The position numbers and the translations under genes were made by a program. The notes beneath the pieces are model-generated. The model searched no databases, was not told the origin of the DNA, and worked only from the letters and a program-made list of their open reading frames with translations. From a virus: a DNA stretch of 64,000 nucleotides. The stretch is taken from the IMG/VR virus record IMGVR_UViG_3300020165_000009; one strand, 5' to 3'. This document shows positions 13,131 to 59,429 of the stretch, one piece after another; position 1 is the stretch's first letter; each line of letters starts with the position of its first letter.

Positions 13131-13676
13131 TTACGCAGTCTTTCTATAAAACTGGTAAGCAATAGTAACAGTGAAGGTTTGTACGTCACCAGAAGCTGTC
13201 ACATCGTATGATAGATCACCGACTGAACGTATGCTAGCGCCAACCAATTGATACTGTGCTAGTTGATTTAGTTCCTTATCTAGCTGCACTAAGTCGATGA
13301 CAGAATCGGCCTTAGGTGTAAAGTAATTACCTGTAGATGTAGAGTCATCAAACGTATCATTAATGACCTGTTGGAACTTCTCATACAATTTATATGATTC
13401 ATCAGCTCTAAAAGTTAGAGAATATCCACCAGAGTTGTTATACTTAACAGTACCGGGTACATGAAAATCTAACCCCATGTAAGGTACTACAACATCTTGA
13501 ATTGTCTTACCAGGTAGAGTAGCTGTAGTCGCATATATTAGATCCTCTTCATCAATAGATATATCACTACCGCTACCGAAGTCAATGTTAAGTACCCTGA
13601 ACAAGTTATTTCTTGCGAAATCTCTTGCTTGCGCCTGAGTATAAAAGTCTTGTATCGTTTGTTTAACGTCTGCCAT
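13131..13676 (-). CDS. gp19: Tail tube protein
   Basis: FARNNLFRV, TLPG...VPYMG...VPG, LSYD...FTVTIAYQ; directly after the sheath gene. Confidence 0.9.
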   Translation of the reverse strand: MADVKQTIQDFYTQAQARDFARNNLFRVLNIDFGSGSDISIDEEDLIYATTATLPGKTIQDVVVPYMGLDFHVPGTVKYNNSGGYSLTFRADESYKLYEKFQQVINDTFDDSTSTGNYFTPKADSVIDLVQLDKELNQLAQYQLVGASIRSVGDLSYDVTASGDVQTFTVTIAYQFYRKTA

Positions 13677-13717
13677 GTAATTATTTAATCTAGATTAGTT
13701 GTTTTTTATATGAGTTC

Positions 13718-13766: not shown

Positions 13767-16184
13767 TTAACCGACAATCTCGTTGAAGTCTGTACCTGTA
13801 CGAGTTGCATAGAAGTTAACAAGAATGAATTCAGCAGCGCGAACTGGCTTTAGGTAGATATCTACCACCATTTCATTTTGATCAATAACGTCTGGAGTGT
13901 TATTTCTTTCATCGCATACGATCAAGTAATCATACAATCCTTCAGTATTCTTAGCATTCTCGAATATTGGGGTGAGTGTATTAATAACTCTCGTTCTTGT
14001 GAGTAGCGTATTAGGCTCGAACAAGAAGTACTTAACTGTATTTCTTGTCGCTTTCTCAAGATTCAAGAACAGTCTACGTACATTGATTCTATCAAATGCA
14101 GTCGGAGCTGCTTGTAGAGTCTTCTGTCCGAATGTTACGAAGCCATCACCCGGGAAGAATGCAACTGGGTTGACCGAGTTCTTATAAAGTTGGTCTCTTT
14201 GCTTCTGCTTAGGGTACAGCGCGATATCATTAACACTACCTACTCTACCTCTAGTAAATCCAGCAGGTGCGAACCATGGTTGGAAGTTAGCATCTGTATT
14301 AGCCATTTGACTTGCAGCAGTACCAGAGAATGGCACCCATACTTGATCGTCTAATGAACTATCATAAACCTTATTCCAAGCTGCATATGTAGTAGAGTAA
14401 CTTGAATTAAGAATAGTCGTAAAGGCTTGCACGGGCTTTGATACATTCAACGAGAAGTTCTTTTCAGGATCATCTAGGGTCTTGAAGTTACGTCCTTGTA
14501 CGAATATAGGCCTTGGTAAATCGGCAATAAACATATGATCCTTCCTTCTCTTCTCCGCAAAGTCGTTAAACCTATTGTAGATTGTCTTCCAGTTATCTCT
14601 GTAAGTCTGTGCTTCTGATGATATCTTAGTAATATCTGATTTATAGAAACCGGACATTGCTGAGACATTAGTTAGATCGTCGAAGTATTTGTCATCGCCA
14701 TTGTCTTTTCTGGCAGCGTTAATTGTACCAAGACCAGCTTCAATAGTAATATCGAGATCAAAGACTTCAGGGTTCTCAATGGTGTCGAGTAATCTGTCAA
14801 CCTTTCTCGGTACACTACCTAGATCTTTTTGCTCCGCTTGTAAGTTAGCATTGGCATAAGCACCGACTGTGAATAGTGAGTCAGCTGCTCCTAAAGTATC
14901 AACCGCTCCAGATAAGGTACTAAAGACGTTATTAATAAGAGCAGCACTAGTAGCTGGTACTATTGATGTCTCAGGAATATAACCACTGGATAGTAGCTGG
15001 AAGTTTGCAAAGCCTGGATCAGCATCGATTGCATTAGCTTCATTTGCAGTAAACTTACTATTAGCAATTCTTATCTTGTTAATAGGGTTACCATTAAGAT
15101 CGAGCCACGTATCACCATTTCTGTGTGATAAGTTGTCATTAATCACGACTGATATATTAGGTGATTCATCTTCTCTGAATCCTAAGAAGAAGCTCTGAGG
15201 AGCTCCACCTTGCTGACTTTGCTGTTGTCTATGGAAGTCAAATGAACCTACATAATTTTCAGATAAGATGTAATCTAGTTTAATAACATCAGCAGCGAAT
15301 ACTGATTGTCTTAGTTTGAATAGACCGACTGATAATACATCATCGTACTGAGGTGTTGCAATATCGAAATCTGTGAGATTTTCCATGATCTCAGATATAC
15401 TATCAGTCTCTTGACCGAATGTATTGGTTGTTGCATCATTTGCACCAGATAGTGTAAAGTTTAATCTCTGAGTTGGCAGTCTTAGGTAATTAGATGTAAC
15501 AGTTGCGCTAGTAGCTACTGTCTCTGCTGTTAATATAGCATCAAAGTCTGTTGCATCGTTTAGGTTAGTATTGTCTGCAAGACCGAGATAATAACCTTCA
15601 AATCGGCCATTAACTGTCGTTTGCCCTTTGTTAAGAACAACTACTGCAGCGTTTCCTAGTTTTGCGAATGTGTCTGGAACCGCGGTTAAATCGTTAGTCC
15701 AGTTGAACTCGTCTTGTCGTAGTACTTGGAAGTATTCTTCCTGCGTTAACTCCATGTGGTAGGGTTTACCGAGTACGTAAATACCAGGTACATTTTGATC
15801 ACCAGACGTCGGCTGAGAGTATGTTGCTAAGGTCTCACCAGTACCAGATAGTGCAATACCTACTGCTGGGTATGCAAGTGCTCCGTAAGTGTTACCGAAG
15901 CCTGCTCCGGTTTGTTCACCATACGGTAACCTGTACGCTTGAATATTAGCTGGTGAATTGAATAGAGGTCTAACCGAATGATAGAAGTAGCGTTCTGCTG
16001 GTGTAGTGGGCAATCCGTAGATTTGCTCGAACTCACTTAAGCTCGTTACTTGAATAACTTCGTCTGTTGGTCCTTTGTCTGCGAAACCTGGGACTAATAT
16101 TGTGGTACCAGCTGGTATATTAGGTCTGAGAGACAAATCTATCTCATTAATCTCTACACCTGGTGATTGAATTGTACGTGCCAT
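13767..16184 (-). CDS. gp18: Contractile tail sheath protein
   Basis: SPGVEINEIDLS, PWFAPAGFTRG, FGQKTL, FDRINVRRLF, FEPN, KPVRAAEFILVNF. Confidence 0.97.
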   Translation of the reverse strand: MARTIQSPGVEINEIDLSLRPNIPAGTTILVPGFADKGPTDEVIQVTSLSEFEQIYGLPTTPAERYFYHSVRPLFNSPANIQAYRLPYGEQTGAGFGNTYGALAYPAVGIALSGTGETLATYSQPTSGDQNVPGIYVLGKPYHMELTQEEYFQVLRQDEFNWTNDLTAVPDTFAKLGNAAVVVLNKGQTTVNGRFEGYYLGLADNTNLNDATDFDAILTAETVATSATVTSNYLRLPTQRLNFTLSGANDATTNTFGQETDSISEIMENLTDFDIATPQYDDVLSVGLFKLRQSVFAADVIKLDYILSENYVGSFDFHRQQQSQQGGAPQSFFLGFREDESPNISVVINDNLSHRNGDTWLDLNGNPINKIRIANSKFTANEANAIDADPGFANFQLLSSGYIPETSIVPATSAALINNVFSTLSGAVDTLGAADSLFTVGAYANANLQAEQKDLGSVPRKVDRLLDTIENPEVFDLDITIEAGLGTINAARKDNGDDKYFDDLTNVSAMSGFYKSDITKISSEAQTYRDNWKTIYNRFNDFAEKRRKDHMFIADLPRPIFVQGRNFKTLDDPEKNFSLNVSKPVQAFTTILNSSYSTTYAAWNKVYDSSLDDQVWVPFSGTAASQMANTDANFQPWFAPAGFTRGRVGSVNDIALYPKQKQRDQLYKNSVNPVAFFPGDGFVTFGQKTLQAAPTAFDRINVRRLFLNLEKATRNTVKYFLFEPNTLLTRTRVINTLTPIFENAKNTEGLYDYLIVCDERNNTPDVIDQNEMVVDIYLKPVRAAEFILVNFYATRTGTDFNEIVG

Positions 16185-16214
16185 AATATTATTTATGGTC
16201 CAACGGGATAAAAA

Positions 16215-22386: not shown

Positions 22387-22803
22387 ATGGCAAATAAATA
22401 CTATAACCGATTTACTAAGGTTCTCCGGGAGCAGGATGAAGATCCAGCGTTAACAGACGCAGAGGCTTTAGACGCTGAGCTTAGTGACATCACATCTGAC
22501 GAGCTAGGCGCAGATCTACCAGATAATGCTTCAGGTTCTCCCTTGAATAACCAGCAAAAGCAGATGTATGATGAGTTGAATAGCTGGATCTCTAAGATGG
22601 ATGAATTTGCATCTTACTTAAATGGCACAGACGACAGTATACAAACTACTCTTAACTCGGCAGAACCAGATACTATTTTCGATAGTATCAGTAATTCTGA
22701 AACAAAGAAGATTGCTAGAGTTGCTATGGAGGTAATGTCCTTAAGTGAAATTCTCAAGGGTTATCTTGCTGGTGCAAATGATCCTAAGTATAGATTTAAC
22801 TAA
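22387..22803 (+). CDS. Hypothetical late protein, probable internal head protein
   Basis: Start chosen at 22387 after TATAAATA; leader MANKYYNRFTKVLRE followed by an acidic region. Confidence 0.6.
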   Translation: MANKYYNRFTKVLREQDEDPALTDAEALDAELSDITSDELGADLPDNASGSPLNNQQKQMYDELNSWISKMDEFASYLNGTDDSIQTTLNSAEPDTIFDSISNSETKKIARVAMEVMSLSEILKGYLAGANDPKYRFN

Positions 22804-22810
22804 TAAGCCG

Positions 22811-23485
22811 ATGCATAACAAGACCGATATTGATTTAATTTTTGAGAGCTACTCTAAGACTAAGCAAATTGCGCCTGATTTTGATGCCATGTTTAATAAG
22901 GTGTATGACAGGTTACCAGAGTCACAGGATGAGTCAGACTCATTTCTGTTCGATGTACTCGATGCTGAAGCTAGTAACGGTGTCAGTAAGGCAGAGCTGA
23001 TCAGTAAGTATGGTGAGGATGCTGTTGCAACATATGAGAGATTTGGAGAGCAAAACGATCTTTTTGAAGGCCCGTTTGAAGATGCCGAAGGTGACGATTT
23101 TCTTTCTCTTCAAAAAGGCCAAAAAGTTTATGTTACTCTTACCGATGGTAGTGAATTACAAGGAGTGCTTGATTTCGATGGCTTTGATCTAGCACGCTCT
23201 AATATGTTTACAATTGACGGTGGTGAAGAGATCGGCGTCGAGTACATTTCTGACGTCGGTCCTGTATCAACAGAAGACGCGGAGGAATATGAAAGTAATG
23301 TCTATGAGAAACTACAAGCGTTTATGGAGTATCATCCCGAAACAGTAGAATACTTGAGCTCACTTCTTAATGAGATCGAAGCCATTATGACTGACATTAA
23401 TGCTCTTGAAGCACCAGATCAGAAGATAGATGCAGTTGATCTAGGCATACATCTTGATAGATTATCTCCATTTACTAACATTTAA
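22811..23485 (+). CDS. Acidic modular protein with capsid-targeting-like leader and Sm-like middle module
   Basis: Start at 22811 (MHNKTDIDLIFESY); two EDAE linkers flank GQKVYVTLTDGSELQGVL. Confidence 0.6.
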   Translation: MHNKTDIDLIFESYSKTKQIAPDFDAMFNKVYDRLPESQDESDSFLFDVLDAEASNGVSKAELISKYGEDAVATYERFGEQNDLFEGPFEDAEGDDFLSLQKGQKVYVTLTDGSELQGVLDFDGFDLARSNMFTIDGGEEIGVEYISDVGPVSTEDAEEYESNVYEKLQAFMEYHPETVEYLSSLLNEIEAIMTDINALEAPDQKIDAVDLGIHLDRLSPFTNI

Positions 23486-23489
23486 AAAT

Positions 23490-23798
23490 ATGAAAAACAA
23501 CACAGATATCAATTTAATATTTGAGAGCTATATCAAAAATAAAGCTCTAACCGAAGACAATGATCAATATGCACCTGATCCAATGGAAGATCCAACTAGA
23601 GATGGTGAGGGTGATGTTGTGTATATCGTCCAATCAAATGCAGAACACGAAGATACTGACACACATGGTGTTTTTACTGATTTTGAAACAGCTAAGAAGC
23701 ATGCAGCGGAGGTTGAATTAGTACCTGGGTTTTGGGTTGGTATAATGGAAATGCCGCTTAATGCACCAAACGCTGAAGGTAAGTATCATAGACTCTAG
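23490..23798 (+). CDS. Acidic small protein with duplicated leader
   Basis: Start at 23490; MKNNTDINLIFESYIKNKALTEDNDQYAP is shared with the 23827 ORF. Confidence 0.65.
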   Translation: MKNNTDINLIFESYIKNKALTEDNDQYAPDPMEDPTRDGEGDVVYIVQSNAEHEDTDTHGVFTDFETAKKHAAEVELVPGFWVGIMEMPLNAPNAEGKYHRL

Positions 23799-23915
23799 TA
23801 GCTACTAGATAATATTTAATAATAATATGAAAAACAAAACAGATATCAATTTAATATTTGAGAGCTATATCAAAAATAAAGCTCTAACCGAAGACAATGA
23901 TCAATATGCACCTGA
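23490..23915 (+). repeat. 89-bp direct repeat (23490-23578 and 23827-23915, one mismatch)
   Basis: atgaaaaacaa(c/a)acagatatcaatttaatatttgagagc...caatatgcacctga occurs twice; a diverged third copy starts at 22811. Confidence 0.95.
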
Positions 23916-24138
23916 AGATGCTCCTGAAGATGATCAATTTGGAGAAATTGAACCAGAAGAAGATGAGTCAGTAGGGGAATTCGACGAGTTTATCGAAAAG
24001 GCTGAGAAGTTCGTCGACGCTATTGGAGATGATGAGTTAGAATTCTTATCGACTCTACGTAAAGATCAATTTGAACTATTAATGGAGGTTGTCAGTGACC
24101 AGGTCGGTTACCGAGATAGAACAGATTATCATAACTAA
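23827..24138 (+). CDS. Acidic small protein with duplicated leader
   Basis: 103 aa; same 29-aa N-terminus as the 23490 ORF, unrelated C-terminus. Confidence 0.65.
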   Translation: MKNKTDINLIFESYIKNKALTEDNDQYAPEDAPEDDQFGEIEPEEDESVGEFDEFIEKAEKFVDAIGDDELEFLSTLRKDQFELLMEVVSDQVGYRDRTDYHN

Positions 24139-35153: not shown

Positions 35154-35822
35154 CTACTTTCGCCACTTCTTAATAAAGTATGTCTCGCCGTCGTAAAATT
35201 CTTTATCAGGTTTAGTTAGTCCTGGGCTACTGTGAATGATCGGTATATCCACTACGCCTATTGTAACGTGGTTCCTATTACATTCAAGTGAGAAGTCTAA
35301 ATCATAATAATGAAACTTAGATGGATAAGATTCGTCAAATCTCACATTTTCAGGTAACTCTTTAATATTGATGCCAATAAAGACTCCGTCAATAACTAAA
35401 CATCTGCTCGGTACAGGTCCGAAGGAGGTATACATATATGAATCTTTATCTCCATGAGCTACACACCCTCTTTGATCTTCCCTTTTTGACATAATATGCC
35501 ATAAAGCAGGGCTACCAACTTTACAAGAAGTAGCACCGGCGAGCCCGAATACGGTGTATTGATCTGCAGCTTTAGATATAAGAGAGTATAAATCACGGGT
35601 ATTAATATGTACGTCATCATGTACCATAACTGCAATATCAATATTGTTTTTCCGTGCATCGTCAATAAAATTATTGTAACACTGTTGAAGGCTTTTAGTA
35701 TTTTTATCCTCGTATTGTACTGAAACTCCTAGGTGATCTAGCCCGTAACTCTCTAAACATTTATAGAGTACGCAGTCCTCCTTATTGCCTTTAGTCGCGC
35801 TATAAATTTTAATATTATTCAT
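35154..35822 (-). CDS. Glycosyltransferase-like protein (GT-A, family 2-like)
   Basis: YN...MVHDDV, GLAG, IDGVF, FDE...FHYYDLDFSL, IIHSSPG; start chosen at 35822. Confidence 0.75.
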   Translation of the reverse strand: MNNIKIYSATKGNKEDCVLYKCLESYGLDHLGVSVQYEDKNTKSLQQCYNNFIDDARKNNIDIAVMVHDDVHINTRDLYSLISKAADQYTVFGLAGATSCKVGSPALWHIMSKREDQRGCVAHGDKDSYMYTSFGPVPSRCLVIDGVFIGINIKELPENVRFDESYPSKFHYYDLDFSLECNRNHVTIGVVDIPIIHSSPGLTKPDKEFYDGETYFIKKWRK

Positions 35823-36153
35823 AATCTTTGCGATCATCCAGTTCTGGTTTGTTATCTCTATTCCAAATCATACCCATTACATTCCACAATACCGCCCCTA
35901 GGTGGTCTTCACTCTCATCACCTCTGAAGTCTTGCATTAGATGTCTCATTGCACTGTCATATAGTACAGAATGCTTCATACCTCTCCGCCAGTTATTTTC
36001 TCCATAGGCCTCAGCACCTTGCAAGTATCTCACCATAACCGATTCTAAGGCTTTGTGTGGTACTAAACTCATACGTACCTTACCTTCACAGTTATCACGT
36101 TGTGCGCCAGTTTCAAACTGACGAGGCTTCCCAGTTGTTTTCAGATCATCCAT
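35815..36153 (-). CDS. dATP/dGTP diphosphohydrolase-like protein (DUF5664-type)
   Basis: FETGAQRD...GK.RMSLVP...GAEAYGENNWRRG...DSAMRHL...EDHLGAVLWN. Confidence 0.8.
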   Translation of the reverse strand: MDDLKTTGKPRQFETGAQRDNCEGKVRMSLVPHKALESVMVRYLQGAEAYGENNWRRGMKHSVLYDSAMRHLMQDFRGDESEDHLGAVLWNVMGMIWNRDNKPELDDRKDYE

Positions 36154-36168
36154 ATAGAAATTATAATA

Positions 36169-36690
36169 TCACTTAGTAAAGAAATCAAGCCATAGATTAA
36201 GTGATATGTCCTTAAGTGTAGTAAACATTTCATCTAATGAGGCACATTCATTTTTTACACCATGTGACAACACTACCTTACCTTCATCAACACCGGGTGT
36301 AACGTGATGAATAACTGAGCCTATAGTAGAGTAGCAGCCCTCAAAGGCACGTACTTGCGGATCTTTACCTTTAAGTTGTGGATAGGATGTTATTAGTCCG
36401 GGATGGCCGTTATAAATTTTATACTCCTCGCATATCTCCTTAGGTATAATATTAAGCCATCCATGTAACGTAATAAAGCATGTGGATGGGTCACCAAAGC
36501 AATCTCTCAAGTACTGAACATCCTTAACGTGCCTCTTTGCAATTCGATGACCTACATCACTAATATTAAGTCTACGGTCAATCTTAGTATCATCTTTCTG
36601 ATCAAAAAATATAGAGGATGGATTAACTCCTCGTTCTACCAGGCTCGCTATCTCTGAACCAGTTTGTGAAAATAGTGCTATATGTCTCAT
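36169..36690 (-). CDS. Formyltransferase, PurN-like (possible DpdN-type base formylase)
   Basis: ALFSQTGS, LHGWLNIIP, NGHPGL...GKDP, GSVIHHVTPGVDEG. Confidence 0.85.
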   Translation of the reverse strand: MRHIALFSQTGSEIASLVERGVNPSSIFFDQKDDTKIDRRLNISDVGHRIAKRHVKDVQYLRDCFGDPSTCFITLHGWLNIIPKEICEEYKIYNGHPGLITSYPQLKGKDPQVRAFEGCYSTIGSVIHHVTPGVDEGKVVLSHGVKNECASLDEMFTTLKDISLNLWLDFFTK

Positions 36691-37367
36691 AGTGTTAAGA
36701 ACGGTGATTTATGATTGAATGTGGATACTATCTCGTACCCAGTGGGGGTATATTTGTATATGGTACCTTCCGCTACCTCTATATAACCATTGCCCTTAAT
36801 AGATGATACATGTGTTCCTTTATAGAATAAAGTACTACCCTGTCTAGCTACATATAAGTTATTACTCCAGGTATTATACATCCAAACAGCATAGGTACCC
36901 TCAAGTCGTTGCAGCACTCTTGTAATATTATTAATTTCACCTTCTATTACACTTTCACACGGGCCATCTTTATAATCATTCTCGGCTAGAAGGTATGGTA
37001 TAATATAACTATCTACCGGATTATGAGGTACAGCTCTACATTCTTGTTGTAACTCCTTAAAGTTAGTCAATACCCCGTTATGAGCTACTACCCAGTCACC
37101 TACCTCGAATGGGTGTGATGTATCGTCTTGGAAATACCTCTGACTGCTAGTAGGAGCTTGGTTATGCCCTAGGAATAATTTACAATCTGCAGGTACACCC
37201 ATATCTTCCATACAGAAAGAACCTTCTTTACGTATAATGCCGTAATGTGCCTTATCACCTTTAACAGATGCATACAATAATCCAGTAGCAAAGTTGCCTC
37301 TAGATTGGTTAGCTTCCTCTAACACCTCGAAGGTATTACTATCATCACTACAATATATTCCGCACAT
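36687..37367 (-). CDS. Class II (Ntn) glutamine amidotransferase
   Basis: Start chosen at 37367 (MCGIY, N-terminal Cys; TATAAT 6 nt upstream); GHNQAPT, HPF, AHNGVLTN, VDS. Confidence 0.9.
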   Translation of the reverse strand: MCGIYCSDDSNTFEVLEEANQSRGNFATGLLYASVKGDKAHYGIIRKEGSFCMEDMGVPADCKLFLGHNQAPTSSQRYFQDDTSHPFEVGDWVVAHNGVLTNFKELQQECRAVPHNPVDSYIIPYLLAENDYKDGPCESVIEGEINNITRVLQRLEGTYAVWMYNTWSNNLYVARQGSTLFYKGTHVSSIKGNGYIEVAEGTIYKYTPTGYEIVSTFNHKSPFLTL

Positions 37368-37413
37368 ACTCTTATTATAGTATAAAACCAGTGTAGAATC
37401 CATAAATATTATT

Positions 37414-39051
37414 ATGAATTTCGCTACATGGACAAACCGAGTAATTAATGAGAGCAGTGAACATTACTTTGCTGAAGAGCTTCTAGAGGAAAGTATTGCT
37501 AAGACACTGAAGCCAGTAGTTAATAAAATGAAGAAACTAAACATAGGTGTACCATACCGTGATGCTCGCTTATTTTTCTTCAATTACCTTCAAGATCAGC
37601 ACCCTGAAGTTATTCCAGCTGAATTTAAAGATTCAAAAAGAAAACCATCAGCAAAAGATGTTAATGCAATGGTAGGTCAGATTGCAATTGATCGCCCAGA
37701 AATGCTCGATACGTTTGCAAACGAATTCGAAGCATACGCCACCGGCAAGGATGACGAAAATCCAGATGAGGATAGAGTATCAGAGTTTCTTAGAATCGCG
37801 ATGATACTTAGAACTGGCAAAAACGTTCGGCCTAAAAAACATGAAGGTTATAAGACAAAGGAATATAGCAACTTATCAGCTGAGGAGATCAAAAACACAA
37901 CAATGGATGCAATTGAAAAGGCTCCAGTTGAAAAAGGAGTAGATCCTGATATTGGGGATGAGAAGCTTCTACTGAAAGTAGCATTCACTAAGGTACTTGC
38001 TCAACTCCAAGAGCTTGACGAGCTTGACCCTAAGGTGCTTGTCAATATCGCTGACACTGGCGCAAAAGTAGACAGCATTGATAAGTTCAAGCAGTTTTTA
38101 GATTACATGCACCAGTTCGAAGAGTACCATCTCGCCGAAGCATACTTACGTGATATGATCGCAGTTCTTGAAAGGGAAATGGCTAGTAAGGAAGACGAAG
38201 AGCTTGATGATTTTGATACAAGTCGTCATTCAGATGAAGATATTCCGGAATATTTAGAGGACTTGCATGCGATGAGGGCTGGTAAATTTCCTGGTATGAA
38301 GAAGAAGAGAAAGGTAGTTGATTATGATACATCTTATGCACCCGTTTACGACACAGAAGAAGACGCTGAAGGTGTCAGTGTAAAGCAAGAAGTACTTAAC
38401 GCTGTTAAACAAGGTGCTGGTGAGTTTGCTCATAAAGCAGCTGGTATGCTTCAGTCAGCTAAAGAGCTTCATGACCAATATAGCAGACAGGGTGATCAAG
38501 AAAGAGCTAGTATCACTAAGTCACTCGTTAATCACTTCACTGTACAATCAAAGTTTGATGAAGATGCAGAGGCAAAGCCGGACTATATGGATATGGACGG
38601 CGATGGTGACAAAGAAGAGTCGATGAAGAAAGCTGCTAAAGATAAGCACGCTGCATGTGAAGATGCCGAAAATGGGTGTGATTGTGGCATGTGTCCGGAT
38701 TGTGCTGATAATGCAAGATATGGTACCTCGGATGAAGAGCAGAAGAGCATTAAAGATGAATACCATCTTTCCCCAGAGCAGTATGAAAAAGCTCGAGGAA
38801 TGGCAGACTTTGATGCTAGTGAATGGTTCTTTAGCCCGTCACAGAAGCTATACTTTAGAAAAAGAGAAGGTGGTGAAGATCAAGAGCAATCAACTGCTCA
38901 ATATATGTCCAAGGCCCCTGTCGAAAAACGTGAAGAGTCTGAAGAAGCGAGAATGTCTCAACAAGAGATTAACCAAATGCTCGCTAACCGAGAGAGAGAA
39001 AGAGTTCAAAACCTTTACGCTCAACAAAGACTGCATACTCAAGGATATTAA
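37414..39051 (+). CDS. Large acidic modular late protein, putative polyprotein/internal head protein
   Basis: TAAATA upstream; leader MNFATWTNRVINE; repeated EDxE/SDEx linkers; DMDGDGD and CDCGMCPDC modules. Confidence 0.65.
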   Translation: MNFATWTNRVINESSEHYFAEELLEESIAKTLKPVVNKMKKLNIGVPYRDARLFFFNYLQDQHPEVIPAEFKDSKRKPSAKDVNAMVGQIAIDRPEMLDTFANEFEAYATGKDDENPDEDRVSEFLRIAMILRTGKNVRPKKHEGYKTKEYSNLSAEEIKNTTMDAIEKAPVEKGVDPDIGDEKLLLKVAFTKVLAQLQELDELDPKVLVNIADTGAKVDSIDKFKQFLDYMHQFEEYHLAEAYLRDMIAVLEREMASKEDEELDDFDTSRHSDEDIPEYLEDLHAMRAGKFPGMKKKRKVVDYDTSYAPVYDTEEDAEGVSVKQEVLNAVKQGAGEFAHKAAGMLQSAKELHDQYSRQGDQERASITKSLVNHFTVQSKFDEDAEAKPDYMDMDGDGDKEESMKKAAKDKHAACEDAENGCDCGMCPDCADNARYGTSDEEQKSIKDEYHLSPEQYEKARGMADFDASEWFFSPSQKLYFRKREGGEDQEQSTAQYMSKAPVEKREESEEARMSQQEINQMLANRERERVQNLYAQQRLHTQGY

Positions 39052-39061
39052 TTCATAACAC

Positions 39062-39430
39062 ATGTTAATAGCAAATACACTATACACTTATAAGGCAAAA
39101 GTAGTATCCATATATGATGGTGATTCCTTGAGATTGGATATTGATCTCGGATTCAAAGTCGTTATGCAAAACCAGCGCGTTCGATTACTCGGAATAGATA
39201 CACCGGAAGTGAGGGGTGAGGAGCGTGAATCTGGTATAGCTGCGAGGGATTACATGAGAGATTTATTATCAGATAAAGAAATTATAATTACCACTATAAA
39301 GGACAAGTACGGTAAGTATGGTAGGTGGCTGGTAGAGGTGTTTATACCAGACGAAACTCAAGAGAGTGGATTTCTAAATGTTAATCAACATTTAATTAGC
39401 GAGGGCTTAGCTGTCCCATACGGGGAATGA
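39062..39430 (+). CDS. Thermonuclease (SNase-like)
   Basis: VSIYDGDS...RVRLLGIDTPE...DKYGKYGRWL...NQHLISEGLA. Confidence 0.9.
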   Translation: MLIANTLYTYKAKVVSIYDGDSLRLDIDLGFKVVMQNQRVRLLGIDTPEVRGEERESGIAARDYMRDLLSDKEIIITTIKDKYGKYGRWLVEVFIPDETQESGFLNVNQHLISEGLAVPYGE

Positions 39431-39699
39431 GTGAGTACGAGAAAAATAAATACTATTGCGGTGCGTGGTGGACGCCGAAATGGGTTCGTAGGATTTTAAG
39501 TACTAGGTTTAACGCTAGTTGTAAAGTACATGATCTAGATTATGATACTACGAGGTTTAGTAGAGAAGAGGCAGATACTAGATTTTTACTTCATATGATA
39601 AGACAGGCAAAGAGCTCTATATTCTGGGAAGTTATAGCTACGTTGTTTTATATCTCAGTTAGACTTATTGGTAAGCTATCGTGGGGTAAAAAAGATTAG
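39427..39699 (+). CDS. Small protein with PLA2/DUF1353-like CxxHDxxY motif
   Basis: YYCG...FNASCKVHDLDY...REEADTRF. Confidence 0.55.
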   Translation: MSEYEKNKYYCGAWWTPKWVRRILSTRFNASCKVHDLDYDTTRFSREEADTRFLLHMIRQAKSSIFWEVIATLFYISVRLIGKLSWGKKD

Positions 39700-40436
39700 T
39701 TGATAGACTTACAACCATTCTTCTCATATATAGCGTCTAACTTATCCTGCTGTATATAATCTAAAGGGTCCCTCAGCTTAGCTTCAACGAAGCCTTGTAG
39801 CCTTAAGCTGCTGCTAGCAGACTCAACGTCACAAGGGTACTCGCCTGAATAGCAGGTATATGTATTACTAAAGTTTACCCCAAGGGAGACGCCGTCTAAG
39901 ACGATATCTTTTTTAGACATTTCAATAAGAGGAGCAACTACTGTAATTCTATTCTCTCTATTAAGTGCTGTTACGTCATTTAACTGATTTACAAACTCTT
40001 CAGATCCATCCCAGTAACCGGCTAAACTATCTGCTTGCGCGGCCCCGTACCATACCTCACCGGCACCTACAGCCTCAGCATAAGAGCAAAGCATACTCAA
40101 GAACATTAAATTACGGAATGGTACATAACTCTTAGGTTGAGCTTCACCCATCATATCATTTACATTCGGGGTATCAATACTATCATTAGTGAGTGACGAT
40201 ACTGGCGCCATCTCACGTATAAAAGTTGTATCAAGTAATTTATTATGAAATACTTTATCTGGGTATAAGTTCTTAATATCAGCTAGCTGCTTTTCAACGC
40301 ACTCTAGTTCTCGTTTATGACGCTGCCCATAATCAAAGCTAATAGTATGTACTTCATCAGCTAGCCTCGCAGCTTTAAACAACAGTACAGCAGAATCCAT
40401 CCCACCACTGAGAGTTACAACAATTTTTCTTTTCAT
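39696..40436 (-). CDS. queC: QueC-like 7-cyano-7-deazaguanine synthase
   Basis: LSGGMDS, FDYGQRH, YVPFRNLMFLS, APL...K, TYTCY. Confidence 0.9.
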   Translation of the reverse strand: MKRKIVVTLSGGMDSAVLLFKAARLADEVHTISFDYGQRHKRELECVEKQLADIKNLYPDKVFHNKLLDTTFIREMAPVSSLTNDSIDTPNVNDMMGEAQPKSYVPFRNLMFLSMLCSYAEAVGAGEVWYGAAQADSLAGYWDGSEEFVNQLNDVTALNRENRITVVAPLIEMSKKDIVLDGVSLGVNFSNTYTCYSGEYPCDVESASSSLRLQGFVEAKLRDPLDYIQQDKLDAIYEKNGCKSIN

Positions 40437-43006: not shown

Positions 43007-43381
43007 TTACTCATCAAAGAGCTTAATTACCTCGGCATCCTCTGCTTCGTCTGATGATGCCTCAACCGGTACTAGTACCGGGTTAACAACCTTCTCGTAC
43101 TGCTCAACAATACGTGGCTCGATTGTAAACTCACTACCTAGAGCGATGTTTTGAACACTCCAGGAGAAGACAGTAGATCGCTCTGCATCTTCACCTACTG
43201 GTTGAATAAACTCTGGGAAGAATAGTGGAAAAAGCTGCACGGCCATCTGGCCATCCTGCTGAGGCTGAACGGTGATCATTACAGGATTCTTTACCTGAAT
43301 GCAATCGCCTTTTGATACTTCCTCACCGAAAACGGTGCGGCCTGCGTTATCAATAAATGTGGTATATTTCTTATCTGTCAT
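43007..43381 (-). CDS. Hypothetical protein (possible Sm-like fold)
   Basis: GRTVFGE...VKNPVMI...IVEQYEKV resembles small T4-family Sm-like proteins near the polymerase. Confidence 0.5.
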   Translation of the reverse strand: MTDKKYTTFIDNAGRTVFGEEVSKGDCIQVKNPVMITVQPQQDGQMAVQLFPLFFPEFIQPVGEDAERSTVFSWSVQNIALGSEFTIEPRIVEQYEKVVNPVLVPVEASSDEAEDAEVIKLFDE

Positions 43382-43388
43382 ACGTATA

Positions 43389-43415
43389 ATTATACAGGTG
43401 TTCCTATCTAATCAA
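43389..43415 (-). promoter_or_regulatory. TTGATT...GGAAC-N5-TATAAT promoter
   Basis: Minus strand gTTGATTagataGGAACacctgTATAATtatacgtATG. Confidence 0.7.
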
Positions 43416-45970
43416 CTAAGTAAATCAAATAAATCTGTCTGAACTGCAGCTCCGGGTCGTTGAATAGACCAACTCACATTATCATAAAAGCGCTCAATAG
43501 CAGAGTAGATAATCTTCTCAAACATTAATTCATAATCTATCTTGAGCTTTTCCTTAAATTCGCTAGGTAGGTAGTATTTATATGCCACATTACCTATGTT
43601 ATATGGATTAGGTTTCTGCACGTAAAAAAATCTAACCTTATCCCCACTACCAATCTCTTCATATTCCTTATCAATATTAAACTTCTTGAGAAGTATGTTG
43701 TGATAATACGCAGCTTTAACATGACTAGGCATACCTTTGCATGTAGTAAAGCCATTGCATTGAGTCGAATACTTCTCGTAATTCTTAATACCCGACACAA
43801 AAGCAATATCCTCAATAGGTAGGCTCTTGAAGATCCTATAAGCTTCATTCAGTACACTATTAGTCTTATTAATATCGCGAGTACTCAGCATCGTCTCAAT
43901 AATATTCTTAACATAAGGTTTAATAGCTGCCGGCATAGTACTACGAACGACCTCTACACCGGTATACTTGTATTTATCCATGGCAATTCCCTCGTCATCT
44001 AGTACATGCATAACGTAACGTTTCTTCTGCAGAAACACGCCTACATCAGCGAGCATTTCACGTTTAAAAACAAACCTACAGTCCATAGAGTTGAGGGAAC
44101 GCGTTCCCCATATCTTAATTTTATCATTCAAGAAATCTTCAATCTTTTGAACCTCTTTATGTAACTCGTCAGTTATCTTACCATCCGGTCCTACAAAATC
44201 AATATCAGTATTATCAATAATATGCTTAAGGGATATATATGACGAATCTGTATCGTTGTATATAACACTATCATTAAGCTTCTTCTCGTCATCTATACCT
44301 ACGCGTTTAGTTATATACTGCTTGAGTAACTCGTTAGAGGTCTTAATTACTGCCTGTCCGGTCAGGGTAATTGACGCGGCAATATCATCATCGCCGAACG
44401 GGGCATGCTTATTGCCGAAGTATCCATATATCGAGTTAATAAAGATCTTGATACAGAGCTGCTTCGAGTCTAATTGATCAATACGTACCTTTAGAGCAGG
44501 TGTCGGGTTAGCAGCATACTCATGCTTTAGTTTAGTAAGTATCTTTTTAACCTCAACGCGCTTGTTATAATACTCATCGAGAATCTCAGGCATTACACCT
44601 TTACGCTTCTGTGTAAACAGTACATTAGCCCGACTTATACCGATCTCTTCGTCTTTGACAAACTTACCAAAGCTCTCGATAGGCATTGTAAATGTTTTAC
44701 CGTTGACGTGCCTAATCGTAACCTCCTCGTCAGTCTTATCTTCAATTTTACCTACCTTTGTCTCCGGAGACATATTAAGAGAGATCATTACGTTCGGATA
44801 TAGTGAGTTAGCATCAAACGAAATAATATCTTTCTGAAATCCCTTTAACGGTTCGCCTACATATGCGCCTGGATTCTTGCCAGTATCCTCATTGCGAATG
44901 AACGTAGGTATACATTGCTGACGTCGTCTACCTCTAATAGCAGTAGCACCGTTAATGACGGACAATGACCCCATAGCTGCTTCAAACGAAGTTAGGCCGG
45001 AATAAGCTAACATACGAATTAAATCAATATACTTCAGTTTAACATCTAAATTCTTAAGAAGTCTAACGTCTTGAATGTTGTAGTCAACAAACGTCTGCCA
45101 ATCCTCATCAGATAGAGTAGCAAGATTCATATTACCATACTCAACCTTTTTCTCACCGAGCTCTAATTCACCGATAGCATCGAGCTTATAACTCTCACGG
45201 AGACCCATAGAGAACTTTTTATACACATCAAGATAGTCAAGTAGTGATATACCTTCTATAGACCATTTCACCTGGTCTCTCCCAAAGGCTCCCTTAATGA
45301 TCCTACTAGTTACATTACCTGTAGGGGACATACGAGCAACCCATTCATCCCCAAGGATACGGCGGCATCTGTTAATAATATAAGGTATATCGAAGAACTC
45401 AGAGTTCCAACCAGACAGTATATCAGGAAAATCCTGCTCTAGATGTTGAATATACCTCTTAAAGAGGTCCCTCTCATCATCACATTTTATATAAGTTACG
45501 TCACTTTGATGATTTTTGTAGTCATATAGCCCGAACGTCGTGAAGTGATCTGCTATAGTATCGTATACAGTTATAACAGTTACTTTATGATTACCAGTTT
45601 GAATATCTGGGAAGTCGTCGGGGGAGTAAGTCTCAATATCAATAAACATCGTCTTAATAGGATGCTTATTGAAGTCCTCTTCTTCGTTCTCCTCCCAGTA
45701 ACGATCTACAAGATATTGTTGATGTGATTGTAAGTTTTCAAATACTCTCTTAATACCAGTATCTTTAATAAACTTATACCGGCCATACTGATTCTGAAAC
45801 TTCTTCTTAATTAGCTTAGTACCAAAAATAGACTCGTACTTACCGTTACCTTCAACAAATAGATACGGTTCATGAGACACCTCATAAGATATACGCTTAC
45901 CATCTTCATCCCACGTAAAGAGCTTAATTGAACTCTCCTTACCATTATATACTATATTTCGATAACTCAC
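43412..45970 (-). CDS. gp43: Family B DNA polymerase
   Basis: Exonuclease DIET, GWNSEFFDIPY, YNIQDV; polymerase FDANSLYP, KIFINSIYG, YNDTDS, KKRY; GTG start. Confidence 0.97.
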   Translation of the reverse strand: MSYRNIVYNGKESSIKLFTWDEDGKRISYEVSHEPYLFVEGNGKYESIFGTKLIKKKFQNQYGRYKFIKDTGIKRVFENLQSHQQYLVDRYWEENEEEDFNKHPIKTMFIDIETYSPDDFPDIQTGNHKVTVITVYDTIADHFTTFGLYDYKNHQSDVTYIKCDDERDLFKRYIQHLEQDFPDILSGWNSEFFDIPYIINRCRRILGDEWVARMSPTGNVTSRIIKGAFGRDQVKWSIEGISLLDYLDVYKKFSMGLRESYKLDAIGELELGEKKVEYGNMNLATLSDEDWQTFVDYNIQDVRLLKNLDVKLKYIDLIRMLAYSGLTSFEAAMGSLSVINGATAIRGRRRQQCIPTFIRNEDTGKNPGAYVGEPLKGFQKDIISFDANSLYPNVMISLNMSPETKVGKIEDKTDEEVTIRHVNGKTFTMPIESFGKFVKDEEIGISRANVLFTQKRKGVMPEILDEYYNKRVEVKKILTKLKHEYAANPTPALKVRIDQLDSKQLCIKIFINSIYGYFGNKHAPFGDDDIAASITLTGQAVIKTSNELLKQYITKRVGIDDEKKLNDSVIYNDTDSSYISLKHIIDNTDIDFVGPDGKITDELHKEVQKIEDFLNDKIKIWGTRSLNSMDCRFVFKREMLADVGVFLQKKRYVMHVLDDEGIAMDKYKYTGVEVVRSTMPAAIKPYVKNIIETMLSTRDINKTNSVLNEAYRIFKSLPIEDIAFVSGIKNYEKYSTQCNGFTTCKGMPSHVKAAYYHNILLKKFNIDKEYEEIGSGDKVRFFYVQKPNPYNIGNVAYKYYLPSEFKEKLKIDYELMFEKIIYSAIERFYDNVSWSIQRPGAAVQTDLFDLLS

Positions 45971-53973: not shown

Positions 53974-54789
53974 ATGGATAATTATACCCAACTTGCAAAT
54001 AAAATTCTCAACGAGAGTATGGATAGCTCGAGACTTAGCAGTGATACAGCATTAAGAGATGAAATGATCGCACTAGATGATGAACTTTTCAGTGCTGTAG
54101 ACGCAGGAGATAAAGCGGCTCACGAAAAGGCGCTTAATAGATATGAAGCTCTAAGAACTCAAGCCATCGACAAGTTTGGGATAGACGGCCCTATCCATCT
54201 TATCGATCCAGATCTGCACGGCGCACATTCGGATGATTATAAGGATGAAAACGGCGTTAGACCACACAATGTTACATTCCGTGACGCTGTAGAATTTTAT
54301 CCGTCCGGTGCATATGGTAAAATAGTTGATGGTAAGTTTATTGCCCCGCCTGTAAAGAGTTATATTGAAGATAATGAATCTCCATCAGACGGACTACAAG
54401 CTATCTTGCAGAAATATCCAAGTGAAGTAGAGGATCTCAAAAATAGTGGAGAGTTTGCTGATGAGCTGTATGATGAGCTATTTGAATTTTATCTTGATAG
54501 TGGTGAGATGCCTTATGGTGTAGCAAAAGCTAGAACAGGGGATCCATATGAGTGGGTACATGCTAAATTAGATGAGTTGGGTGTGTTTAATGATGCCGAG
54601 CACGTTGAAGATAATCAAAATGCTATAACTGCTGATGATTTAAAAACTCTAGAGACTGTCAAAGCACTAGCAGGCGGTAAAGCAGATGGAGGCCTTTTTA
54701 GCAATCCTGAAAAACAAATACAACAAGCGTATGGTAAGATGCTTACCAAGATATCCAAGCAAATGAAAAACGTAGCTAAGAAGATGTAA
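53974..54789 (+). CDS. Acidic modular late protein, probable internal head protein
   Basis: Leader MDNYTQLANKILNE; EDNE and EDNQ linkers; modules SDDYKDENGVRP and GEMPYGVAKARTGDPYEW. Confidence 0.6.
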   Translation: MDNYTQLANKILNESMDSSRLSSDTALRDEMIALDDELFSAVDAGDKAAHEKALNRYEALRTQAIDKFGIDGPIHLIDPDLHGAHSDDYKDENGVRPHNVTFRDAVEFYPSGAYGKIVDGKFIAPPVKSYIEDNESPSDGLQAILQKYPSEVEDLKNSGEFADELYDELFEFYLDSGEMPYGVAKARTGDPYEWVHAKLDELGVFNDAEHVEDNQNAITADDLKTLETVKALAGGKADGGLFSNPEKQIQQAYGKMLTKISKQMKNVAKKM

Positions 54790-58311: not shown

Positions 58312-58971
58312 CTAAGCTCCTTCGAATCCTGTATCTCTAGCGGCGGGGTCTTCACTGATATCATCGAACTTCAAAGTCCTGATACCTCCATCTTCATCCT
58401 CTGCATCTTCTACTTGCTCATGATTATCCTGATAATCGAGGTGGTGGAATACTGAAGAGAGATAATCTGATGCCTTTGTAATTTTTGCTGCAACCCAACC
58501 ATCTAGAGAGTCTACATTGGCTATATGGTCGAATAATTTCGATGAATATTCAGCGGCTTTAAGTAGGTCAGCTCTCGCCATATCAACCTCACCATCATAA
58601 TCGTCCTGGTCGTGGTCGTGATCACAGTCATCATCTATCTCACCAGCTTGTATATATACTGTCTCATCTTCAGCAACACCACGAACATTTGGTATATGAC
58701 GTACCCGTGAATGGGGCGTAGTACTACCAATTGATGTTACTCTAATCATAGAGGGTGTACCGTGACCTAAACCAAGATCGTCCTCTTCAGGAATCTCTTC
58801 ATCATTAGGATTGACATAAGTCGGGTCTGATCTAAACTTCGGACCACCTCTACCATCTGAATCTGCATCTCCTTTACGGAGATGACCGCCCTTTGTATAG
58901 TGTTTACCTTTTGGAGCTTCTTTTGCTTCCATGTACGCCTCATATATGAGTTCAGATTCTACCTTAGCCAT
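58312..58971 (-). CDS. Acidic modular late protein
   Basis: TATAAATA upstream; leader MAKVESELIYE; helical module EVDMARADL...WVAAKITKASDYL; EDAE linker. Confidence 0.6.
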   Translation of the reverse strand: MAKVESELIYEAYMEAKEAPKGKHYTKGGHLRKGDADSDGRGGPKFRSDPTYVNPNDEEIPEEDDLGLGHGTPSMIRVTSIGSTTPHSRVRHIPNVRGVAEDETVYIQAGEIDDDCDHDHDQDDYDGEVDMARADLLKAAEYSSKLFDHIANVDSLDGWVAAKITKASDYLSSVFHHLDYQDNHEQVEDAEDEDGGIRTLKFDDISEDPAARDTGFEGA

Positions 58972-59003
58972 AATAATATTTATACTATGTATTAAATAAT
59001 TAT

Positions 59004-59429
59004 ATGGAATTTGATAAGTTATATAACCAGCTCATGGAATCCTTACAAGAGGATGCAAAGAAGTGTTGGGACGGGTATGAAAAGGTTCCGGGTATTCCGC
59101 GTAGTAAGCAAGGCTCATGCAAGAAAAAAACTGAAGGTGAAGAAGTACCTGAAGAAGATGCTGAGTATAGAGGCAGGAAGGTAACTCTTAATAAGCCCAC
59201 CAGAGGTGATGTTAAGAAGTTTAAGGTATATGTAAAGGATCCTAAGACTGGTAACGTTAAGAAGGTTAATTTCGGACATGGTGGTACGTCTGCTAAGAAG
59301 AGAGGTGAGAAGACAATGAAGATTCGTAAGAGTAATCCAAAGGCTCGTAAATCTTTTAGAGCTAGACACAAGTGTGATCAAAAAAAAGATAGAACCACTG
59401 CAGGTTACTGGTCATGTAAGAAGTGGTAA
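59004..59429 (+). CDS. Late protein with DUF6321-like basic domain
   Basis: KCWDGY module, EDAE, then YRGRKVTLNKP...KKVNFG...RKSFRARHKC...AGYWSCKKW. Confidence 0.65.
   Translation: MEFDKLYNQLMESLQEDAKKCWDGYEKVPGIPRSKQGSCKKKTEGEEVPEEDAEYRGRKVTLNKPTRGDVKKFKVYVKDPKTGNVKKVNFGHGGTSAKKRGEKTMKIRKSNPKARKSFRARHKCDQKKDRTTAGYWSCKKW

Follow-up and report, generated by a model that had tools for sequence, protein, structure and literature searches.

We analyzed a 64,000-nucleotide stretch of viral DNA, IMG/VR record IMGVR_UViG_3300020165_000009 (the window in what follows), and within it the open reading frame (ORF) at 37414-39051 on the plus strand, whose product we refer to as P0001. The reading we favor, to which we assign a probability of roughly 0.45, is that P0001 is a leader-trimmed capsid cargo protein whose acidic seams have a function at the peptide level. 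Behind an N-terminal domain the protein is predicted to consist of units that fold independently (a helical hairpin, an AKPDY/DxDxDG loop, a four-Cys knuckle, an aromatic unit and a terminal helix), and the disordered E-D-x-E or S-D-E-E joints are seams of cassette insertion, loss, duplication and re-ordering. These joints are maintained at the peptide level, and the cassettes are drawn from a pool common to many other phage proteins. The source of the window is a distant, uncultured marine T4-like phage; its UvsX-like recombinase shares only 33% identity with cyanophage counterparts, and genes for the tail tube, sheath and baseplate occupy positions 1-18.5 kb.

Acidic joints and exchangeable units in P0001

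A first-pass annotation of this DNA had read the C-terminal half of P0001 as a series of unrelated mini-modules divided by EDEE (38191), SDED (38230), EDAE (38359, 38560 and 38659), SDEE (38728) and EDQE (38875). All seven motifs are present and in frame, the motifs it named in ORFs 22778/22811, 23490, 23827, 53974, 56179, 58312, 59004, 32609 and 43007 are likewise all present, and the EF-hand-like and Cys units exist as it described them. An AlphaFold model built on 71 sequences agrees with its picture of small units strung together by a recurring acidic joint: all seven joints fall in segments with a predicted local distance difference test (pLDDT) score below 50, between small confident units. 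The features of the protein behind its leader are as follows.

37414-39051, plus strand: P0001 open frame, 545 amino acids, acidic (21% Asp + Glu)
37453-38187, plus strand: helical N-terminal domain, residues 14-258, about 50% identity across the family
38191-38202, plus strand: joint 1, EDEE, residues 260-263; E260 invariant in the N-domain alignment A3, E263 at least 90% conserved in alignment A2
38230-38241, plus strand: joint 2, SDED, residues 273-276, in close relatives only
38299-38313, plus strand: KKKRK (basic peptide), residues 296-300; the stretch around it is disordered, with alignment occupancy of 10-30%
38359-38370, plus strand: joint 3, EDAE, residues 316-319, containing a 65-column insertion point
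38371-38559, plus strand: helical hairpin unit, residues 320-382 (AlphaFold 323-381, pLDDT 82-92)
38560-38571, plus strand: joint 4, EDAE, residues 383-386, where occupancy climbs from about 0.2 to 0.7
38572-38658, plus strand: AKPDY-DxDxDG unit, residues 387-415, EF-hand-loop-like, with a short AlphaFold element at 400-411
38659-38670, plus strand: joint 5, EDAE, residues 416-419, with a 19-column insertion point filled in 50 sequences
38671-38727, plus strand: four-Cys unit NGCDCGMCPDCADN, residues 420-438, with a short AlphaFold element at 428-436
38728-38739, plus strand: joint 6, SDEE, residues 439-442, the largest insertion point (178 columns, filled in 52 sequences)
38740-38874, plus strand: aromatic alpha/beta unit, residues 443-487, LSPEQYE...YFRKREGG (AlphaFold 452-486, pLDDT about 86)
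38875-38886, plus strand: joint 7, EDQE, residues 488-491; E488 and D489 in at least 90% of sequences, with a 14-column insertion point next
38887-39048, plus strand: C-terminal tail ending ...HGY, occupancy about 1.0, with a long helix at residues 516-543

In the AlphaFold model the N-terminal domain is all-helical, with cores at pLDDT 70-88, and residues 261-328 are disordered. When the whole model or the N-terminal domain by itself was used as the query, fold searches found nothing beyond generic helical matches (Z at most 8.0, Foldseek E above 0.008). The AKPDY loop DMDGDGDKEESM has D1, D3, D5 and G6 of the EF-hand pattern but Met rather than Glu at position 12, and homologues with DLDDDGEISEYE match the 12-residue loop pattern in full; neither this unit nor the Cys unit matched any Pfam family, EF-hand included. 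All four Cys are retained in close relatives of P0001, and distant homologues carry only a one-Cys stub (RCPVTGK or CPY). Most homologues conserve the aromatic unit, which P0017 and L146 have in duplicate, and the C-terminal tail is retained at 28-30% overall identity.

Among 164 homologues, all of them from marine metagenomes, the N-terminal domain and the C-terminal tail are conserved and the middle of the protein is a cassette array. It had been proposed that homology should break at the linkers, and in a 71-sequence alignment the largest indels do lie there, with the qualification that alignment programs are prone to use conserved acidic words as anchors: the main insertion points are at residues 440 (178 columns), 318 (65), 263 (33), 417 (19) and 491 (14), each in or beside a joint. 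Column occupancy is complete to E263 and falls right after joint 1, stands at 10-40% over residues 267-382, rises at EDAE-383, drops after ED-417 and is recovered after SDEE-442. Both the presence and the order of units vary among 23 non-redundant homologues; the Cys stub, for example, precedes the DxDxDG unit in P0020 and follows it in P0001 and P0120, and some homologues hold extra units such as the beta-rich VLDHxRPVMVxDHDGDxFVFVQDEDG. P0001 and its close relative P0003 differ by an insert that starts with EDAQ and ends just ahead of EDAE.

The same units occur well beyond the P0001 family. A search with residues 316-445 against 1.84 billion cluster representatives gave at least 166 matching clusters, 35-1186 residues long and of many architectures. 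Most of these 166 matches cover the AKPDYxDxDGDGDKxESMKKA unit, often in tandem, and stand-alone AKPDY ORFs of 35-105 residues are also found; the phage family that matches this unit is phrog_24078. The hairpin unit appears in three other architectures (P0123, P0124 and P0125), where ED[AGN]EG stands ahead of it and the acidic word on its other side is FDEDAE in P0123, FDENAE in P0124 and, in a looser form, FEAREDSE in P0125. Within the window itself, late ORF 53974-54789 (plus strand) carries a MPYGVAKARTGDPYEW unit between EDNE and EDNQ, and late ORF 58312-58971 (minus strand) carries a WVAAKITKASDYL unit of the WVxAKITKAxDYL type. For ORF 59004-59429 (plus strand), the 96-position profile of phrog_7595 aligns to residues 51-141 and starts exactly at EDAE-51; by this alignment the first 50 residues are a putative leader and spacer ahead of a near-complete phage family domain. 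The occurrence of units in other architectures with acidic flanks supports module shuffling at a standard linker, and this part of the first-pass annotation is borne out, as units are permuted, duplicated and found again in unrelated architectures.

Separately, we observed that units of ORFs 53974 and 58312 recur in the long metagenomic repeat proteins P0122, P0126, P0127 and P0169 and in the P0001 homologue of G002, a complete 221-kb relative, as well as in hypothetical proteins of Synechococcus phages S-H9-1, S-WAM2 and S-SM2.

Late promoter, leader and the question of cleavage

Three further features at the start of the gene bear on when P0001 would be expressed and where it would go (here and below, an arrow marks the bond at which cleavage would fall).

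37403-37408, plus strand: late-promoter-like TAAATA, 5 nucleotides upstream of the P0001 ATG
37414-37452, plus strand: leader MNFATWTNRVINE, 13 residues, ending I-N-E↓S, like a T4 capsid targeting sequence (CTS)
37480-37491, plus strand: second conserved site, L-x-E-E↓S (L23-E26), with E26 and S27 nearly invariant

The arrangement TAAATA-N5-ATG occurs 22 times in the window against 2.2 expected, the tail sheath and tube genes included, and CAATAAATATTATT-ATG lies upstream of all P0001 homologue loci examined; the assignment of P0001 as a late gene is thus supported, as judged from the promoter motif. If TAAATA serves as a T4-type late -10 element, transcripts would begin at or beside the AUG, such that the late mRNAs would be leaderless or nearly so. 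Examples of the fixed spacing are found at 16182-16195 (minus), 13674-13687 (minus), 37403-37416 (plus) and 58993-59006 (plus).

Alignment A1 shows no variation at leader residues I11 and E13, both of which are at least 90% conserved in A2 and A3, and [IL]-x-E at residues 11-13 is found family-wide, including in homologues of 28-30% overall identity. The T4 protease gp21 cleaves after L/I-x-E (PMC9026906). At the sequence level the leader of P0001 has the length and end of a T4 CTS (about 10-19 residues with an L/I-x-E end), and it agrees with the gp21 rule. The second site is retained in an L-I-E-E-S version in the homologue of G002, the most distant of the family, which is without the first. 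Leaders of this kind are not confined to P0001: a hydrophobic-hydrophobic-x-E-[SAGN] pattern within the first 28 residues is found in 12 of 78 window ORFs, where about 2 would be expected (background of 0.025 per protein), and its bearers comprise 8 of 27 plus-strand and 4 of 51 minus-strand ORFs, with MKTFKQYYNTILNE↓G and MDNYTQLANKILNE↓S as examples.

Under the reading we favor, the 13-residue leader would act like a T4 CTS and bring P0001 into the prohead, where a gp21-type protease would then remove it; the joints are non-canonical as protease sites, and the rest of the chain would most likely stay whole after trimming. P0001 would thus probably be an internal head or ejection protein, with the promoter and the leader as the only indications of capsid residence.

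The composition of the C-terminal half is consistent with a chain that stays whole. Over the C-terminal halves of the 23 non-redundant homologues, [LIVMF]-x-E-[AGS] occurs 0 times against 23.7 expected and [LI]-x-E 21 times against 59.7, and no depletion is seen for [LIVMF]-x-[KR]-[AGS], a basic control (31 against 18). P0001 itself has no canonical sites other than INE↓S, LEE↓S and, at residue 240 within a helix, LAE↓A. This depletion is what would be expected of a Glu-rich disordered chain that survives a T4-type protease. As a proxy for the head genes we used G002, which also served as a control, together with about 80 related capsid loci. G002 encodes a Peptidase_S77 protease (PF03420, 102.8 bits) and a Gp23-family capsid protein with an inferred maturation site of CIQE↓AGPG; three other long IMG/VR relatives yielded neither PF03420 nor PF07068, and the window holds no cognate prohead protease gene. 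The roughly 80 related marine capsid loci (L038-L117) conserve an inferred maturation site of the form LLENQExWC[ILVM]xE↓[AGSN].

AKPDY units in other proteins have different borders. In 185 non-redundant units the upstream flank is [VLMI]-x-E↓[AGS], with a hydrophobic residue at P3 in 72% and Ala, Gly or Ser at P1' in 79%, and in 145 other AKPDY/DxDxDG proteins (P0126-P0270) [LIVMF]-x-E-[AGS] occurs 581 times against 219 expected, a 2.65-fold enrichment. T4-type sites therefore bound AKPDY units elsewhere at the place where the P0001 family has E-D-x-E↓A, and T4-type prohead proteases may have candidate multi-site substrates in these 145 proteins, for which phrog_24078 is the sole matching family.

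The first-pass annotation had gone further and proposed that the E-D-x-E joints are themselves prohead-protease sites, at which packaged P0001 would be cut after the last Glu to free the hairpin, AKPDY, Cys and aromatic peptides inside the head. Several observations are in keeping with such a polyprotein. All known gp21-family proteases cut after Glu and P3 varies among them (Leu or Ile in T4, Ser or Ala in phiKZ, Ala in SPN3US); the joints are disordered, accessible and conserved in position, and in five of the seven the final residue, or the last acidic one, is Glu (SDED has Asp at its end, and EDNQ, a related joint in ORF 53974, has Gln). The T4-type flank of the 185 units elsewhere falls exactly at the E-D-x-E↓A position, AKPDY units exist as stand-alone ORFs, the EDAE of ORF 59004 lies exactly at the start of the phrog_7595 domain, and 7 of the 10 EDAE of the window are in late proteins. 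Set against these points, the Asp at P3 departs from the L/I preference of T4-like proteases and matches none of the known specificities, [IL]-x-E is the form found both in the leaders of this phage and in related capsid proteins, and canonical sites in the C-terminal half are missing rather than enriched. Three EDAE, moreover, lie in two ORFs without a late promoter, two of them at positions where the homologues carry different acidic loops, a gain the polyprotein model does not predict, and the relative G002 is without such joints. The available sequences thus do not support E-D-x-E as a prohead-protease site, and we regard the polyprotein as an unlikely, if serious, alternative.

The cargo reading must itself be treated with caution, as several points weigh against it. 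The window holds no head gene; the G002 homologue is without I-x-E at residues 11-13 and without any E-D-x-E; and the N-domain fold searches yield no functional clue. The depletion of 0 against 23.7 rests on related sequences, and a general depletion of canonical sites, which we looked for in the other leader-bearing proteins of the window, is absent (11 against 13). Resistance to a protease needs no specific E-D-x-E, so the cargo reading does not account for the motif, nor would it predict EDAE in ORFs 43007 and 32609, which have no late promoter.

EDAE as a peptide-level motif

Within P0001, ED.E occurs 5 times against 0.69 expected (p about 4e-4) and EDAE 3 times against 0.07, a count reached in none of 20,000 shuffles. 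As the pattern had been picked after reading the sequence, we ran an unbiased scan of every tetrapeptide over 78 non-overlapping window ORFs (19,962 residues). EDAE ranks first, with 10 occurrences, spread over six proteins, against 0.51 expected (Poisson p 2e-10) or 0.64 under a first-order Markov model. The remaining 11 orderings of E, E, D and A each occur at most twice, and EDAE dominates each of ED.E, E.AE,.DAE and EDA. as a pattern. Shuffling within proteins 300 times gave no tetrapeptide with a count of 10, the maximum being 8, seen once. In the control G002, 3 EDAE are found in 65,032 residues and the best tetrapeptide has p 1e-5; taken together, the scan and this control indicate that the enrichment is real and lineage-specific. 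Across the 23 non-redundant P0001 homologues ED.E occurs 73 times against 10.8 expected, with DE.E, DD.E and ED.D at 9, 8 and 3. Head modules of relatives contain 7 EDAE in 190,000 residues, all at one homologous position (L-N-EDAE) of the gene that lies next to the capsid gene at the scaffold (gp22) position, in 7 loci, and show no enrichment, and our literature search found no paper tying EDAE to phage processing.

The constraint acts on the peptide and not on a DNA word, as the sites differ in their codons. The ten DNA matches to GARGAYGCNGAR in the window are all in frame, lie on either strand and use differing codons, and the three EDAE sites of the P0001 gene are three different 12-mers. 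Codons within the motifs (GAA 74%, GAT 89%) are the same as outside, and over 28 distinct genes synonymous variants are as many at the joints as at other conserved sites.

Seven of the ten EDAE are in late proteins, and the other three are in the minus-strand ORFs 43007 and 32609, which have no late promoter. The former (43007-43381, minus strand) is a conserved protein of 124 residues, encoded between the UvsX-like gene and the large ORF 43412-45970, that has two EDAE and no match in cultured phages. Its two motifs sit where homologues have KED-ES/DAD-GN and EE-PE/DD-K, one of them with a 3-residue insertion, and a sequence comparison of this kind points to a lineage-specific motif gain in a gene without a late promoter.

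We consider candidate roles for E-D-x-E to be partner binding, cation binding and non-canonical cleavage. A second alternative to the cargo reading builds on the first two and treats EDAE as a short linear motif to which a single common partner binds (a protein of the phage or the host, or a cation). The motif would lie in exposed acidic loops of several proteins of the lineage, packaged or not, with P0001 as a multivalent scaffold or decoy that has several copies. Such a role would accommodate the preference for the exact tetrapeptide beyond acidity, its presence in ORFs with and without a late promoter, its appearance in the 43007 protein where homologues have loops such as KED-ES and DAD-GN, its lineage-specific enrichment with absence from G002, the constraint at the peptide level, and the adjacency of EDAE to DxDxDG loops that resemble cation-binding sites. 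Against it, the partner is hypothetical, the flanks have no extended consensus, and the motif alone gives no reason for indels and unit swaps at these positions; we find it doubtful as an account of P0001.

A third alternative places the constraint in the DNA, with short conserved GAAGAYGMNGAR stretches as recombination signals or scars that mediate cassette exchange. In T-even tail-fibre genes, conserved motifs mediate exchange of this type, and in P0001 the indels and permutations do map to joints, as does the insert, starting with EDAQ and ending ahead of EDAE, by which P0003 differs from P0001. The three different 12-mers, the unremarkable codon usage of the motifs and above all the undiminished synonymous variation at the joints contradict this model, however, and we reject it as very improbable. 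That the motif is a by-product of chance or of acidic composition, for which one could cite the 21% Asp + Glu of P0001 and a pattern chosen after the fact, is close to untenable given the first rank of EDAE in an unbiased scan, the rarity of its same-residue permutations, the lack of enrichment in G002 and the failure of all 300 proteome shuffles to reach the observed count.

Related systems and the P0001 locus

The closest known counterparts to the cargo reading are the T4 internal proteins IPI, IPII and IPIII and Alt, with which P0001 would share late expression (for P0001, by its promoter motif), a short leader ending in L/I-x-E (10-19 residues in T4) and unrelated cargo behind a common leader type. 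P0001 differs in being much larger, with a cassette-like acidic C-terminal half, and in that its packaging is only inferred; no sequence or fold similarity to the T4 internal proteins or Alt was found. The T4 CTS has been proposed in reviews as a route that recruits varied proteins into the head (PMC9026906), and in our literature search the CTS was not tied to cyanophages beyond a T4 review. Like the T4 core proteins gp22, gp67 and gp68, P0001 is acidic, helical and, by its promoter, late. Those proteins are cut by gp21 into several fragments (PMC9026906) at L/I-x-E, whereas in P0001 Asp occupies P3 at the joints and the C-terminal half is free of canonical sites; G002, furthermore, has a separate scaffold gene at the gp22 position beside its protease. 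In phiKZ, 201phi2-1 and SPN3US, where head and ejection proteins are processed at several sites, cleavage after Glu takes place at a three-residue motif in many head proteins, and long propeptides contain redundant sites (PMC9026906, PMC5694885). The motifs in those phages are S/A-x-E or A-x-E, the proteins have no homology to P0001, and the phage of the window is T4-like and not phiKZ-like. The metagenomic AKPDY/DxDxDG and MPYG-KARDGDP repeat proteins (phrog_24078) have the AKPDY unit and a beads-on-a-string build in common with P0001, and 16 of 141 have similar leaders; unlike in the P0001 family, [VLMI]-x-E↓[AGS] marks the borders of their units and ED.E shows no enrichment (50 against 41 expected).

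In T4, a short leader can load arbitrary proteins into the capsid for delivery to the host. The locus described here suggests that abundant, uncultured marine T4-like phages may carry this principle further and build cargo from a common kit of mini-domains with a standard acidic seam, the kits differing by phage. A tetrapeptide that is 20-fold over-represented in six proteins of one lineage, with no signal in a relative, is an unusual and sharply defined signature, and would suggest an enzyme or a binding partner specific to that lineage. Were the seams in fact cut, they would represent a new specificity of the gp21 protease family and a polyprotein strategy in a tailed phage. We think it rather unlikely that the combined generalization holds, in which marine T4-like phages keep a common mini-domain pool (AKPDY/DxDxDG, MPYG-KARDGDP, the hairpin and others) and EDAE would also mark other phage proteins for processing.

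P0001 gave no credible match to Pfam, PHROG or PADLOC, no match by tblastn to 50,697 phage records or by profile search to the PDB, and nothing above 0.75 in the ESM Atlas. The genomic position of the family is fixed: it is a lone plus-strand gene lying between a class-II amidotransferase-like gene and the pair QueC and UvsX, all three of them on the minus strand. QueC, the class-II amidotransferase-like protein and their neighbors lie at 35154-37403 and 39696-40436 (both minus strand) around P0001, and on the basis of N-terminal motifs and synteny only they look like a 7-deazaguanine (QueC-type) DNA-modification set. Two small plus-strand ORFs follow P0001 on its 3' side, at 39062-39699. Elsewhere in the window, three tandem ORFs at 22778-24138 (plus strand) have a common leader, ...TDINLIFE↓SY, and divergent sequences beyond it. 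The same leader starts a 435-residue late ORF directly 3' of the P0001 homologue in two relatives (L018:3657-4964 and L019:4313-5620), which makes the P0001 locus look like a landing site for leader-bearing genes.

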